Notes under the pieces: model-generated
The model's database searches: none
Told to the model about the DNA's origin: nothing
What the model saw: the letters and a program-made list of their open reading frames with translations, nothing else
Shown here: in pieces, positions 15,240-54,249 of the stretch
Layout: the number at the start of each line of letters is the position of its first letter
How positions within the stretch are numbered: the first letter of the stretch is position 1
Program-made: the position numbers and the translations under genes
Origin: Eledone cirrhosa
Lineage: Eukaryota
Assembly: GCA_964016885.1 (NCBI GenBank)
Contig: OZ024740.1
Span: forward strand, 221,340,001 to 221,404,000
Direction: 5' to 3'
Length of the DNA: 64,000 nucleotides

Positions 15240-15730
15240 ATGAATAAAAATAGACAAGGGTTAAAATGTCCTCTTCAGTAGACTGCTGATTATCGTTGGT
15301 ATTTCGACGCATTAAAGACTAGATACCTAAAATCAGTGCGAGCGATAACTCAATTAAGTTATCGGGACAGTGGGAAAACAGAGGGAAGGAAAAAAACACA
15401 TGGTGGTATGCAACGTAAAGAGAGGAAAATAGAGACAAGTCAATGAATCCTGTGGGCTTAAGCCCGACATATCAAATTGACGAGGAGAAAAAGACACGTC
15501 CGAGCCGCGAGAAGATTGAGAGAGGAAATAAATTGAAGCAGGTCAGACGGGAGGAAGTGAGAAGGGAGGAAGAAGCAGAGAGGGAGTGAGTGAAAGTGGG
15601 AGGAAGGGCCAGCCGAGAGTGAGTGACCAGCAGCGGGAGTTGAGGAAGGCAAGAGGTGAAGGAGAGAGAAAGAGTGATAGCAGTAAAGTGACAGAAAAAA
15701 TACGAACCACAGCGAAGGGAAAAAATATGA
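15240..15730 (-). mobile_element. Non-coding (TA)n-inserted element homologous to 52783-53378, carrying a permuted hammerhead-like motif
   Basis: Collinear similarity (reverse complement) with 52820-53330, e.g. cccttcgctgtg, ctctttacgttgc, agttatcg. Confidence 0.7.
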
Positions 15731-15750
15731 TATATATATATATATATATA

Positions 15751-16916
15751 TATTAAATTCAAAGGGGTATATATATATAATTAGACATAGTCACAGATAC
15801 ATATATGAGTTTGGCAACCTTTCATGGTGTGGCTCAATGAAGAATTAATTAAGCAAATAATTATTAATCAGAGCTATATATAAAAATGCAAGTCCGAAGA
15901 ACCATTAAATAAAATATATACAATATTTCCTCTCCCAATCAGTATAAATTAACCACATAAAAATCATTTAAACGAGGCTATAAATTTAAAATGTACTTAT
16001 GAAGAAATAATAGACAAATGATACAGATTATTTTCCGCGATGTACAGCCATATGACACTTATCTAATTATTTCTTCTAGCCTGTAGAAATTGACTAGACA
16101 AATAGTTAACTACACGGAATTAGGTACAAAATAGAAGTTTGAAGAAAAAATGCACATAAATTTTACCAAAATTCTCCTAGTCTCGACCACCGTTGGTTTC
16201 TTCCACTTTTTGGATATATCCGATCTTGGATACGTCCACGAGGCCTGGAACTCTTTAGGAGATATCTCAGACTGGACTAAGTTTCTTCTACCATGATCTC
16301 CGCCAGAAATGAATTCAAAATGGCTAAGAACTATCACGTGGCTAGCGGTCAAGGCAGAAAGTTTGTGATTGGTGCCTGTCGGCGAGTAGGCTGTTTGCTA
16401 GAAAGCGCAGCCGAATATTGCCTAAAGTTTTACTCAAACTTACGGGAGTATATATTAAATTCAAAGAGGTATATATATATAATTAGATATAGTCACAGAT
16501 ACATATATGAGTTTGGCAACCTTTCACAGTCTGAGGTATCTCCTAAAGAGTTCCAGGTCTCGTGGATGTATCCAAGATTGGATATATCCAAAAAGTGGAA
16601 GAAACCAACGGTGGTCGAGACTAGGAGAATTTTGGTAAAATTTATGTGCATTTTTTCTTCAAACTTCTATTTTGTACCTAATTCCGTGTAGTTAGCCATT
16701 TGTCTAGTCAATTTCTACAGGCTAGAAGAAATAATTAGATAAGTCTCATATGGCTGTACATCGCGGATAATAATCTGTATCATTTGTCATTTATTTCTTC
16801 ATAAGTACATTTTAAACTTATAGCCTCATTTAAATGATTTTTTATGTGGTTAATTTATACTGATTGGGAGAGGAAATACTGTATATATTTTATCTAATGG
16901 TTCTTCGGACTTGCAT
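15751..16916. mobile_element. Inverted/direct rearranged non-coding element with two hammerhead-like motifs (core CTAAAGA)
   Basis: About 390-bp inverted arms 15885-16274 / 16527-16916 and a direct repeat 15751-15824 / 16453-16526. Motif TCTC-CTAAAGA-GTTCCA...TGGAA-GAAACCA acgg TGGTC-GAGA at 16539-16620 (+) and 16181-16262 (-). Confidence 0.8.
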
Positions 16917-32466: not shown

Positions 32467-32621
32467 GGATACTATTTATGGTTATGTATATACTAAAACT
32501 TTTTATAGTTATATATATTTTAAACCCTAAACAGTGAAGGTCAGTAATTTATTACTACCTTATTACCAGTAAGATAAATAGCTCAATGTAATAACATCAG
32601 TTGTTCTACAGAGCAGTTATA

Positions 32622-35600
32622 TAGAATTCACAAGAATCAAAGCTATGTTCAAACCATTTATTCACTTACAATTGTTTCATCCAAACCTAGGCTTGAAGTC
32701 TTCGGACCATTTTTCAATGTTTGTACACATGATTGACCCCCTTTCCAACGCAAGAGACATACAGATACATATGTATATATTGATGTACAGTGGAGTGACA
32801 TATATTATATCATATTATTTCCGTATATCAATTCAAATTCAATATCAAAATTAAAACCAAATTAAAACAAAATTAAAATACATTCGGCAGTTAACATAGA
32901 TAATGCAAGAGGATAGTTTGTTAGTCAGATGTAGTAGTTATTGTATGCGTTAGTTACGTGTGTCTCATTTATATATGATTATTGTGTGGCAGGGTGTTAC
33001 ATGTAATACAAGCACTTTACGTGGTAAGTAAGAGTATTATGGAGGTTGTAGTGGTAAGGTATTTTTTGTATATAATAAAAAAGTATGTGTGCAGAGAAAT
33101 AGAAATAGAAAGGAAATGTAATATATAGTTTATACATCCATCAAATAATTAACGATGATTCCGTATTGGATGTTTGATGCATTAAATTAAAATTATTTTA
33201 GATTATTGCGGCTCAGTGTTCTTTAATCCAATTTTATAGAGTAGGTTGTTTCTGCCTCGAGAATTTACATCGGTTTATTATTCGGAAGTATGTGTGTAAT
33301 TAATGGGGGGGGGGGGGGGGGGGGGTTAATGCGTCAGGGGAGGTAACTAGCTGATTTCCATAATTAAATTATTGTTCTAACATTCATTATAAGGTGTCTC
33401 AATTGAGTCCCTTATATAGACGGTTATATATTTATATTCAGTTTCCAATTTTAAACACAGTCTACTCTATCATGATGTACTAAAGGTATTTATATTAGGA
33501 TGATTACTCCCTATCATAGAGTGCTACAACTGAATATTCCATACAAGGAGCCACATCTTTATATCAAAGTTCTTTGCAAATGTAGTCTACTCACAGAACA
33601 TGTCAGGGGACCTATTAGTACTATGTCTACATAACCCCTGGTAAGTTCTGGAGCAGCGTATGGCTGTCTGCATGGCAAGGCCAAATACATATCTATGCCA
33701 GACACAAACATCCCTCATTTACAATGTCATTAATCTATCCATCAAGTTGTACTTGCATATATAACTCACTTCCCATTCATACATAATTCATTGCACTCAA
33801 CATATAGGTTATACAGCTCTCTTATGTTAATAAATTAATCTTATATATATCCAATGTTATCACTCCATACATACAAATACATTTGCATAAATAATTCATT
33901 GTCGAATCTGGTGTTTAAAGCTTACATAGACTGCATTGTATAATTACAAGTGATACCCCATGAACACCCACCCCTAGTACAACCACCCTCAACTACTATA
34001 TAATTATAAGCAGTTGAAAGTAATTCCCCAAAAGTAGGTGCTCATGGGGATATTTCTAGGGTATAAAGCTATAGACAGATGGAATGATTTGTGTTGAGAT
34101 AGGGTGGATCAGAGAGTGTGGAGTTGTGGTGTAAGGTGTGCCCTTGAGGTGTGGTGTTAGAAGTGGCGATGGGTTCAAGTCTGACATTGTTATATATTGG
34201 GTTCAACGTTTTGGAAGGAGTGTCGGAAGCGGTGCTGGCACGACGCAAACACTTCAGTCTTTTTATTAAGGAGGTTATGGTTTGAGAAGATTATAGTATG
34301 GGTCTCTAGTAGACAGAGGTTGCAGAATTTATTAGGTGGTTTGTACGATGCCGCCTTACCTATCACTTCCCATTTAAGTGTATAAGATCTATTTTTAGTT
34401 TTTAGATAGTGTATGTAGCTAGATAGTGAAGTGGAGTTGGCTAGACTGTGTTTTTTGAAAGAATGGAGGTGTGAATTGTATCTGGTTTTGAAGCAGTTCG
34501 AAGTAGAGCCTATATAGGTTTCAGAAGAGTTGCTAGTTATGACGGTGCATGAGTATATGATGTCCTTGATTAAGCATTTTTTATCTAAAGGGCAGGTTCT
34601 ATTAGATCTACAGTTACAATTATTTTGGATGTTTACCTGCCGGTTATTATGTTGTGTAGAAGTCTGGTTGCTAGTTATTGCATTTTGGCTATGGGGGTTG
34701 TCGCTCCCAGCGTTATTGCTTACACTAATGCTATTACTATTATTACTATTGATATCAGGGTTTGTAGATATAACGTTGTTTTGAAGGTTTACCTCCTGCC
34801 GTGTTTTAGTTTGTTGGAAGTAAGTATTAATTTTTCTTTTATTGCTACTAGCTATGTGGTATGCTATGTTAGGCGTGTTAGAGTAGGAGATTTTAATTGT
34901 GTTTTTGTTTATAAGACTATGGTACTTGTGGCCAGATTGGAAGTTTTTATCCAGGAGTGAGAAGAAAGCCTTAGGTAGGTTGGTAGAGACGTTTAGATTG
35001 AAATGTGGGTTGGAAAATGTATTATTTCTTCTTCTATTTTTGTTTTTTATGTCTGGTGAATGCTTCCGTTTATTGTATTTTGGTGACTTCTGTGGTGTGG
35101 GTTACGTTTGTTGCCACCCTTCGTACTAGTGTGTGTGTGTGGTTATTACTCTTATTACTATTTTTCCTTATGGACATATTGTGCGAAATAATGTTGTAAC
35201 TATGTGTTTTTGTAGGTAGGAACACGATCTCATTATTATGGCCTGATCTAGCTAATGCCTGATTATAATATTGTGAGTTTTTGCTAAATATGTTTTCGTC
35301 ATAAGATAGATTAGAGATTCTATCGGATATTCCTTTAGAGATAGAGTTTAATATTGATCTAGGGTGGTTAGACTTGGTATCTACGTAAATCAGTTTTTCG
35401 TTAGGTTTATGGAATGGTGTATATACCCTAGAGTCTAGGTAGAGGGTGGCATCTAGGAAGTTAACGTTTTTAGTGGTTTTGTCTATGGTGATACTTAGGT
35501 TATAGTTTTTGAAAGTCTTGTGCAATAGTTTTCTAGTTCTTTCTATATTAAATTTTTTTATAGTCTATAAGGAGAAGTGCATCATCATAATACTCTTACT

Positions 35601-35986
35601 TACCCACGTAAAGTGCTTGTATTACATGTAACACCCTGCCACACAATAATCATATATAAATGAGACACGTAACTAACGCATACAATAACTACTACATCTG
35701 ACTAACAAACTATCCTCTTGCATTATCTATGTTAACTGCCGAATGTATTTTAATTTTGTTTTAATTTTGATATTGAATTTGAATTGATATACGGAAATAA
35801 TATGATATAATATATGTCACTCCACTGTACATCAATATATACATATGTATCTGTATGTCTCTTGCGTTGGAAAGGGGGTCAATCATGTGTACAAACATTG
35901 AAAAATGGTCCGAAGACTTCAAGCCTAGGTTTGGATGAAACAATTGTAAGTGAATAAATGGTTTGAACATAGCTTTGATTCTTGTG

Positions 35987-35990
<4 letters not shown>
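32622..35990 (-). mobile_element. Penelope-like element, 5'-truncated, with about 410-bp inverted terminal repeats
   Basis: RT thumb VNFLDATL...PFHKPNEKLIYVDTKSNHPRSI (35070-35525), then CNCRSNRTCPLDKKCL...YIGST...RYNSH...CNLC...CQHR to about 34195. Inverted repeats 32622-33040 / 35587-35990, each with CCGAAGA-hairpin-GAAAC aatt GTA then AATAAA. Confidence 0.92.
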
Positions 35991-36059
<69 letters not shown>

Positions 36060-51964: not shown

Positions 51965-52041
<77 letters not shown>

Positions 52042-52415
52042 TAGTGAAAGTAAGAGGGAGAAGGAGAGATAAGGGGGAGAGAGAAAGAGGATAACTGTAA
52101 GGGAAGAGAATAAAGACAGGTCACAGCGAAGGGGAAAGCATATATGAATAAAAAATGGTGAGCTGTGTTGTTGCAATTAAGTAATATATATATATATATA
52201 TATATATACAAGTGGAAGCTTAGTAAAATCCAAGCTTTAGCTGTGGGCAAGCAAAGTCGACCAACAATAGGAATGAGTTAGCAAAGCACTCAATCAGGGT
52301 AGGTCCTTAGAGTAATAACATACGTTTAAATAGCTTGACAAATTGAACATTGCGCTAGGCAAAACCCAACCACATAATACCAAAGTAACGAAAGAACTAA
52401 CAGGTTAAAAATACA

Positions 52416-52782: not shown

Positions 52783-52786
<4 letters not shown>

Positions 52787-53372
52787 CTTAATTGCAACAC
52801 CATTTTTTATTTATATATGCTTTGCCCTTCGCTGTGACCTGTCTTTTTTCTCTTCCCTTACTGCTATCCTCTTTCTCTCTCCCCCTTCTCTCTCCTTCTC
52901 CCTCTTACTTTCACTCACCCCTCTGCTAGTCACCCTATCTTGGCTAGCCTCCTCCTCGCACTTTCACTCACTCACTCTCTGCTACTCACCCTCTCTCTCA
53001 CTTCCTTCATCGTCTCACACCGTACGAGATCCTTTTCCTCGCTCATATCCGCACGGCTAAGATATGTCTTTACCTTCTCGTCAAAATTCGCCCGTTCTTA
53101 TGTTCGAGATGAATTATTGACTTGATTTTTTCATTTTTTCCTCTCTTTACGTTGCCTCACCATTCGTCTCTGTTTACCTGTTTCTCTTTCTCCACCCAAC
53201 TCTTTTTATTCCAATAACTTATTTTAGTTATCGTATCGCCCTAGCTTGAGGTATATGGTCTGTAATGTGAAGAAATACCTATGATGGCTAGTAGACAACT
53301 GATGACAGATATTCCTAACTTCTATTTCTAATTCTTCATTTATTATACTTAATTGCAACAACACAGCTCGTC

Positions 53373-53378
<6 letters not shown>
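52783..53378 (+). mobile_element. Non-coding 561-nt unit with terminal redundancy and an upstream inverted partial copy
   Basis: tacttaattgcaaca at 52785 and 53346. Inverted partial copy at 52043-52186. Homologue at 15240-15730. Confidence 0.75.
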
Positions 53379-53455
<77 letters not shown>

Positions 53456-53707
53456 ATGCATATGTATCTGTATGTACATGTTTCCGTTTGTATCCGTGTT
53501 TGTGATTCTGTCCCGTAAATTAGCGCTTCGGAAAAAGGAGATCGATAAAGCAAGTACCAAATATGATAAAGATAAGTATTGGTTTCGATAAGCTTGATTT
53601 TAACATGGTTTTTCAGTATAATCACCAGTAAATGAGCGAAAGGAAATTAAGTGTTTAGTCAGCCAAATCAATAAAACGTTGATTTATATCAACATTGAGC
53701 GCATTGA

Positions 53708-53737
53708 ACACTTAGATATTTGTACACAAAATATTCA

Positions 53738-53769
<32 letters not shown>

Positions 53770-54181
53770 GTGAGGTTTTTTTTTTACAAAATGAAAAATA
53801 ACCGAGGTGTCCTACACGAGTGAAAGTATAAAGAAAAAGAGATGAAATCGAAAATGCAACTGGAGTCTTATTTCTTTTTAAAATATATATATTTATTTGG
53901 TTCCTTTACCGGTTTCACAGTTCTTCTGCTTTTCAAAAGGTGAGTTGAGATGGAGGGTCTGTGGTTTTTCTCACATCTGTGAAAAACCACAGACCCTCCA
54001 TCTCAACTCACCCTTTGAAAAGCAGAAGAACTGCGAAACCGGTAAAGGAACCAAATAAATATATATATTTAAAAAAAAAATAAGACTCCAGTTGCATTTT
54101 CGATTTCATCTCTTTTTCTTTATACTTTCACTCGTGTAGGACACCTCGGTTATTTTTCATTTTGTAAAAAAAAAACCTCAC

Positions 54182-54213
<32 letters not shown>

Positions 54214-54244
54214 TGAATATTTTGTGTACAAATATCTAAGTGTC
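53708..54244. repeat. Near-perfect 537-bp palindrome with a U3-A8 hammerhead in each arm
   Basis: Centre about 53978. CCTT-TTGAAAA-GCAG aagaa CTGY-GAAAC cg GTA-AAGG at 53903-53940 (-) and 54011-54048 (+, stem I CCCT), followed by AATAAA. Confidence 0.9.
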
Positions 54245-54249
54245 TAATA

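Follow-up and report, generated by a model that had tools for sequence, protein, structure and literature searches.

The hammerhead ribozyme was divided by Eckert, Friedrich, Weinberg and Weinberg in 2023 (PMC10085705) into three blocks, S with the cleavage site, G with GAAA and C with CUGANGA, the last of which includes a strand of stem I and a strand of stem II and is assumed to be unbreakable. In this scheme types I-III correspond to the orders CGS, GSC and SCG, and six orders are listed; type SGC, for which 583 members are predicted and five cut in vitro, is known from metatranscriptomes only, and both SGC and CSG RNAs are cut during transcription of single-unit templates (PMC10085705). 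Pair 10.1-11.1 is the second most conserved pair of hammerheads (PMC3088659). Among Penelope-like retroelements, the Naiads were reported by Craig, Yushenova, Rodriguez and Arkhipova in 2021 as being without canonical hammerheads (PMC8557442). They target (TA)n and form part-tandems and inverted 5'-truncated copies with a tail of 30-40 nt; their 3' UTRs are flagged 'HHR_core' in 10 cases and 'HHR_half_core' in eight, and in the available text of that paper the half cores are not read as a ribozyme. Non-LTR retrozymes, in turn, have been defined as tandem units with a type I hammerhead in each (bioRxiv 10.64898/2026.07.22.740005). Our literature search, which mostly covered sources other than subscription journals, found no paper with permuted hammerheads in Naiads or with a split block C; of two 2026 preprints, one contains type I models only and the other, as far as their available text goes, no Naiad, Penelope or octopus.

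The window analysed here is a stretch of 64,000 nucleotides from the genome of Eledone cirrhosa, which is 3.0 Gb long and rich in AT and microsatellites. On its plus strand lies a motif (Table 1) with all of the core letters CUGANGA, GAAA and U16.1-H17, arranged in the order S > G > C and not in the C > G > S cycle, with its nested stems, of types I, II and III. The first-pass annotation had read an AUA with its stem III strand at 53250-53255, followed by GAAA and CUGAUGA, as a complete set of hammerhead parts outside any circular permutation, and these letters, coordinates and order were borne out. It had also called the order undescribed, which is refuted, as S > G > C is type SGC and cleaves in vitro (Eckert et al. 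2023, PMC10085705). Of the new topology that it proposed, the order is thus known already, while the split block C and the upstream stem II strand set out below fall outside the six orders listed by Eckert and colleagues. The motif itself is real, but longer than had been marked, with a start near 53207. A second motif of the same layout on the minus strand has G-C at 10.1-11.1 and one private mispair in stem I. A search of the whole window against Rfam gave microsatellite matches only, among the matches listed, and a search of 53150-53375 gave no hammerhead at E up to 10.

Table 1. Features of the permuted hammerhead motif and of its repeat unit in the window.
Feature	Position	Strand	Remarks
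Helix IV, 5' strand	53207..53211	+	pairs with 53307-53311; 84.6% paired, 13 copies
Hairpin V	53212..53233	+	between helix IV and stem II; 97.1% paired
Stem II upstream strand ('10-strand')	53234..53239	+	pairs with 53267-53271; 86.2% paired
Outer helix, 5' strand	53241..53246	+	pairs with 53286-53291; 94.9% paired
Block S	53250..53261	+	stem III strand, U16.1 (53254), H17 (A53255), stem I strand
Predicted scissile bond, block S	53255/53256	+	by analogy with hammerheads
Block G	53267..53279	+	stem II 11-strand, G12-A13-A14-A15.1 (53272-53275), stem III strand
Conserved 6-nt linker (WAYGAU) and outer helix 3' strand	53280..53291	+	
Block C, first half	53293..53306	+	stem I strand, CUGAUGA (53299-53305), N10.1 (C53306)
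Helix IV, 3' strand	53307..53311	+	pairing count, 13 copies
Second motif, same layout, related subfamily	15266..15369	-	unit 68.6% identical
Non-coding Penelope-type repeat unit	52783..53378	+	561-nt period and ~30-nt tail; between (TA)n runs
Fragment of the unit's family	52040..52185	-	tail and unit start, 88%, without the motif

The motif is real, as its spacing pattern GAAA-N4-WAYGAT-N13-CTGANGA, derived from both window copies, has 452 and 11,932 exact matches genome-wide (approximately 12,400) against 2 and 1 for the reversed pattern (three in the controls). A descriptor of the order, applied de novo, matched twice in 264 kb, both times in the window and once on its minus strand at 15322; 20 shuffles gave 0-2 matches each and five in total. 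First-look candidates in the genome numbered 2106 and 1256 for the two window motifs, with 40 scored for each, and 20 evenly spaced 10-kb genome stretches contained no copy, which is expected at about one copy per 240 kb. At least three further, more diverged families share the identical spacing (loci L081-L110 and L112-L128); in one of these the upstream strand provides a G-C at 10.1-11.1, and the outer helix is 9 bp long.

The motif belongs to the 3' end of a repeat unit that had been described as terminally redundant over 561 nt, and this holds: two copies of 26 nt, 85% alike, lie 561 nt apart. Its supposed kinship with the elements that carry ordinary hammerheads elsewhere in the window does not hold, as the unit has no significant sequence in common with the eight type I-core elements (best blastn match, E 0.036 over 23 nt). 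The 43 best genome matches of the unit, with 40 of 2106 candidates scored, lie at 93-100%. Among the 30 best-match loci, in which two insertion sites are counted twice, TA is found within 30 nt of the 3' end at 26, an adjacent tandem part-copy at 14 and an adjacent inverted part-copy at eight. Measured by the insertion criteria in section 6 of PMC8557442, the unit shows the Penelope-like pattern of part-tandems, inverted 5'-truncated copies, a short tail and microsatellite targets. It is devoid of any ORF, and hence of the Naiad ORF (GIY-YIG, CxC, DKA and C-terminal RT). It also differs from a non-LTR retrozyme, in which every tandem unit has its own type I hammerhead: its copies are mostly single or part-tandem, and its motif is not type I. 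We regard the unit as a non-coding Penelope-type element, tied to a Naiad through architecture only. 

Intact Penelope-like ORFs in this genome are candidates for the protein that mobilises such non-coding units. One, with RT plus GIY-YIG at the C terminus, lies at L130:933-3263 (C1 near 92.68 Mb), and several intact frames of 775 aa are of the same C-terminal-endonuclease type with RT and GIY-YIG. The L130 frame, of 777 aa and 1.2 kb upstream of a copy, was rejected as that copy's partner because microsatellites lie between the two. An intact Naiad gene was not found in the genome, all Naiad frames found being broken; 27 of the best 30 Naiad matches are stop-containing or short pieces, and the motif was seen at none of the 30 loci, the old broken copies being too decayed to show one. 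To the eye, two decayed motifs, at L161 and L168, are similar to the Octopus Naiad end that has been published. Elsewhere in the window, eight CUGANGA cores are followed by a hairpin and then GAAA (258+, 4050+, 27720+, 37338-, 51208+, 36252-, 24427- and 17779-), and several of them have the appearance of minimal type I hammerheads belonging to other repeats of Penelope type. Near-perfect long inverted repeats at 53703-54248, 15959-16842 and 32618-35997, with arms of 271, 316 and 250 nt, are probably fold-back or MITE-like elements.

To describe the pairing we used an alignment, A4, in which 13 natural copies represent different subfamilies in the genome. It derives from 15 clusters with at least two members, 13 of them of the clade; one truncated representative was dropped, two subfamilies rich in indels are omitted because they did not align, and the window copy was brought in. 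A seven-helix model pairs 93.8% of the 468 cells of A4, both partners having changed in 17 of 36 pairs, and its score was reached by none of 500 shuffles, the slid controls giving 27-45%; as the copies are mutually related and the model was read from them, this score is not independent proof. Stems I and III of the first-pass annotation are upheld (98.7% and 100% paired, with three pairs and one pair changed on both sides), as is its outer stem across the 13 copies, five of the six pairs of which have changes on both sides. Hairpin V has such changes at four of its eight pairs, and helix IV shows a G-C/A-U swap in five among the 13 aligned copies. GAAA, which is part of the search pattern, is invariant in A4, and H17 is A or C among the two commonest triplets in 12 of the 13 clusters.

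Stem II required a different assignment from the one made earlier. The distal stem II of the first-pass annotation (53264-53268/53309-53313) is 49.2% paired and shows no covariation (355-367 of 500 shuffles score as high), and it is rejected. A contiguous stem II, with its strand right after CUGANGA, was also rejected, being 39.7% paired across the 13 copies with the first pair alone holding. In a scan of all registers, the strand that precedes GAAA was found to pair with one immediately upstream of the outer helix, and this register is the best of 14 upstream and 10 downstream ones. Folding and longer windows place hairpin V directly 5' of this 10-strand and the helix IV strand further 5', and the bases that follow CUGANGA pair upstream as helix IV, flanking hairpin V; a short-window helix test of the post-core strand against the upstream region showed no cognate preference (-4.8 versus -4.3 kcal/mol). 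N10.1 is paired with 11.1 in 11 of the 13 copies through four pair types (A-U, U-A, G.U and G-C), and in 12 of the 13 the pair is other than G-C. These pairing patterns predict a stem II that is completed by a strand 5' of the cleavage block, with block C split at A9/10.1.

The window copy itself carries mispairs at G53257.A53297 in stem I and at an A.C in hairpin V, and the first pair of its helix IV is broken; its stem II includes a G.U, and in its subfamily A53235 is bulged from the upstream strand. Within this subfamily (n = 28), eight copies have no mispair, 12 have one, seven have two and one has three, and a C.A mismatch occupies 10.1-11.1 in 25 of the 28, where an upstream U could pair instead. 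Contigs from two public runs, possibly of the assembly's own sample, contain common letters that restore the broken pairs of the window copy. All ten common variants that reads from related copies show in 53207-53311 re-form a pair, leave H17 an H or fall in a linker, and none of the common variants among these reads lies in the hammerhead core. The window copy is likely slower than its sister subfamilies, given its three private mispairs and the family-wide C.A; natural hammerheads with a mismatch at 10.1-11.1 do exist (PMC3088659). At stem I position 1.2 (53257/53297) the subfamily has U-A in 16 copies, G-C in six and mixed forms in four and two, and the coexistence of these forms hints at recombination or template switching between sublineages.

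An independent comparison is provided by Naiad loci. Relatives were gathered with a broken Naiad frame of this genome (24 of 150 aligned), 61 metagenome-contig loci were fetched, and their 3' regions were scanned with any block order allowed, 4 bp required in each of stems I and III, and the core letters required. The scan found S > G > C in 14 of the 61 Naiad-like loci, C > S > G in four, and types I-III in none of these 3' regions; 43 loci have no passing motif, and 11 of the 61 offer less than 250 nt of 3' sequence. Five shuffles of 49 kb gave one weak match. In the 14 loci the layout lies behind the reverse-transcriptase gene, and the ORFs of the eight that were checked contain DKA in all eight and an N-terminal GIY-YIG motif in seven. 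The 14 motifs are diverged from one another, with a median identity of 0.59 and one pair at 0.88, and despite the diverged stems they keep CUGANGA, GAAA, U16.1 and H17, which the scan required. Conserved core letters amid varying stems are the signature of a hammerhead. In all 14 the upstream strand forms 5-6 Watson-Crick pairs beginning with G10.1-C11.1, the commonest pair of the hammerhead class. Positions 10.2-10.5 show 2-4 Watson-Crick types each, and the register is identical throughout the 14 motifs, although the single-locus shuffle p values for the upstream strand are modest (0.008-0.17). Helix IV, of 3-10 bp, begins directly after A9 in 13 of the 14, the gap between helix IV and stem II is filled by a hairpin or a small branched hairpin, and the strand after CUGANGA makes 0-1 bp with the 11-strand in 13 motifs and 3 bp in one. 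In all 14 and in the window copy, 0-2 nt separate the 10-strand from the start of the outer helix, and again 0-2 nt the end of this helix from the stem I strand. In the four CSG motifs stem II is normal, at 5-10 bp, and the scan thus detects a contiguous block C where one is present.

Naiad consensus ends inspected by eye (two from Octopus, three from Acropora, and further ones) likewise read S > G > C with an upstream stem II strand, and consensus records of the nematode region read C > S > G. The CSG motifs with full stems I-III behind a Naiad-like RT lie at L287:3480, L291:2930, L295:2792 and L307:1696 (+); L296, L297, L313 and the cut L299 appear CSG-like by eye, and L302 is deviant. At a further locus, L285, a contiguous type SGC with a weak stem I was seen by eye about 1390 nt past the ORF match, and, if it is real, all three forms occur in Naiads.

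We propose, with somewhat better than even confidence, that the 3' end of the unit folds as a single RNA into a triple pseudoknot with an S > G > C core and an upstream stem II, and is cut after A53255. The new form of a known ribozyme class is well supported as a structure; as a catalyst it is predicted by analogy, and by the same analogy the cleavage site named in the first-pass annotation is likely right. From 5' to 3' the proposed fold would run through a helix IV strand, hairpin V, the stem II strand, an outer helix strand, block S, block G, the linker, the outer helix 3' strand, the stem I strand with CUGANGA, and the second helix IV strand, with stems II, III and I crossing one another as they do in SGC. 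A junction at which helix IV, hairpin V and stem II meet would take the place of the covalent link from A9 to stem II. This junction would come right after A9 in the metagenome Naiads and one pair later in most subfamilies here, because 11 of the 13 copies pair the base that follows A9 with 11.1. The outer helix may tie stems I and II together much like the contact between loops I and II in natural hammerheads, and cleavage would trim the retroelement RNA, as has been proposed for other Penelope-like elements. The 5' ends of genomic copies are consistent with such a site. Among 102 copies, chosen by a pattern in block C, 17 start no more than 40 nt past the predicted cut, and of the other 85 three start in the 40 nt ahead of it (p 0.004); the -60 and -100 bins, inflated by subfamily divergence, are left unused. 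In an overlapping sample, 15 of 135 ends, two of the 15 being artefacts of diverged families, lie no more than 17 nt past the site, whereas stretches of 17 nt ahead of it contain 2-8 each. The 5' ends form no sharp peak at the predicted site, and because reverse-transcriptase stalls predict the same step, the step indicates at most that the template is cut or folded there.

The same helices could also be formed with a core assembled from two copies, in which the hairpin of one copy, made up of the outer helix and stem III, would offer the cleavage site and GAAA, and the arms of the second copy would contribute stem I and CUGANGA as well as the upstream strand for stem II, so that only transcripts of tandem pseudo-LTRs would be cut. 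Cis and trans pairing are indistinguishable by covariation. As stem III tethers the two strands of the outer helix, this helix would in a single molecule have to run back from the end of stem III to the ends of stems I and II, a steric doubt that was likewise raised by Eckert and colleagues (PMC10085705). A crude span estimate, with lengths assumed at 2.8 A for each pair, 6.3 A for each single nucleotide and 10 A for the core, gives sufficient reach in 10 of the 14 Naiad motifs and in the window copy, and leaves the outer helix 3-9 A short of the stem II/III ends in the other four; no trade-off between outer helix length and linker length was seen (rho -0.11, p 0.68). The shortfall in these four, together with the fact that the minimal hammerheads of animal Penelope-type elements act as dimers (PMC4209133), keeps the dimer a real rival, and the tandem part-copies adjacent to 14 of 30 loci would provide the transcripts. 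Stem III, however, is long and non-palindromic, unlike that of dimer-forming minimal hammerheads, and single-unit templates suffice for the cutting of SGC and CSG; weighing the two sides, we consider the two-copy form unlikely.

A less probable reading still is that the 3' end is a structure derived from a hammerhead and kept as a binding signal for the retroelement protein, with catalysis lost in the subfamily of the window copy. The C.A at 10.1-11.1 in that subfamily, the scarcity of G-C at this pair in the genome copies and the poor cutting in vitro of minimal hammerheads from Penelope-like elements (PMC4209133) would fit this reading. However, 10.1-11.1 is kept paired by way of four pair types, H17 stays A or C in the commonest triplets and the reads hold no common core variant, and the 14 Naiad motifs keep their core letters, albeit letters that the scan required, while their stems diverge. 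Least probable, and in our judgement very improbable, is a standard type SGC with a stem II of 1 bp and an upstream strand that acts as an off-switch released before cutting: the pairing of the base after A9 with 11.1, the natural hammerheads known with stems II of 1-2 bp (PMC3088659) and the SGC-like L285 locus speak for it, but the canonical G10.1 sits on the upstream strand, in register with C11.1, in the 14 Naiad motifs, where helix IV occupies the strand after A9, and the contiguous stem II is poorly paired in A4.

Returning to the single-RNA fold with a split block C, we think it somewhat more probable than not that an active seventh hammerhead topology, split between A9 and stem II, is together with CSG the usual ribozyme of much of the Naiad clade, and that permuted forms are common in animals. 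If this is true, the Naiad span would comprise cnidarians, molluscs, nematodes and others, with more than 12,000 copies in this genome, and non-circular permutations would no longer be rare oddities of metatranscriptomes but would be present in animal chromosomes at high copy number. It would break the rule of three uninterruptible hammerhead blocks with a layout beyond the six listed in 2023, and would offer a testable answer to the published puzzle of Naiads that seemingly lack the hammerhead of other Penelope-like elements, the layout explaining why standard descriptors and Rfam miss it. CSG and split forms within one retroelement clade would furthermore provide a natural series on the origin of permutations, a matter left open by Eckert and colleagues in the available text of PMC10085705, and the four CSG Naiad loci of the scan, with four more recognised by eye, compare with only two CSG sequences in that paper.

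Among the known systems, type SGC (HRIMA-1 and its variants; PMC10085705) is the closest to the window motif, with which it shares the order S > G > C, all core letters, a short linker between stems I and II, and a helix that joins the far ends of these two stems. We infer that our outer helix, which joins the same ends, is the counterpart of helix 'I' of Eckert and colleagues. The two differ in stem II: in SGC its strand follows right after CUGAUGA(U), whereas in the window motif the strand at that place pairs upstream as helix IV, and stem II is supplied from the 5' side with hairpin V in between. As its block C is not contiguous, the window RNA is not a standard SGC. CSG, represented by two metagenome sequences in PMC10085705, belongs to the same non-circular class and has a contiguous block C. 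If the piece with stem I and CUGANGA were shifted to the 3' end of a CSG, the window order would result; the form may thus be understood as the CSG/SGC class permuted circularly, with the opening inside block C, and tandem pseudo-LTRs would be a plausible substrate for this. The Naiads (PMC8557442) share with the window unit the (TA)n targets, the tail, the part-tandems and, by eye, the layout, and differ from it in that the unit has no ORF. The minimal type I hammerheads that Penelope-like elements and non-LTR retrozymes carry (PMC4209133; bioRxiv 10.64898/2026.07.22.740005) resemble it in having a core near the 3' end, but they are ordered C > G > S, have a short palindromic stem III, are without the extra helices and share no sequence with the unit.
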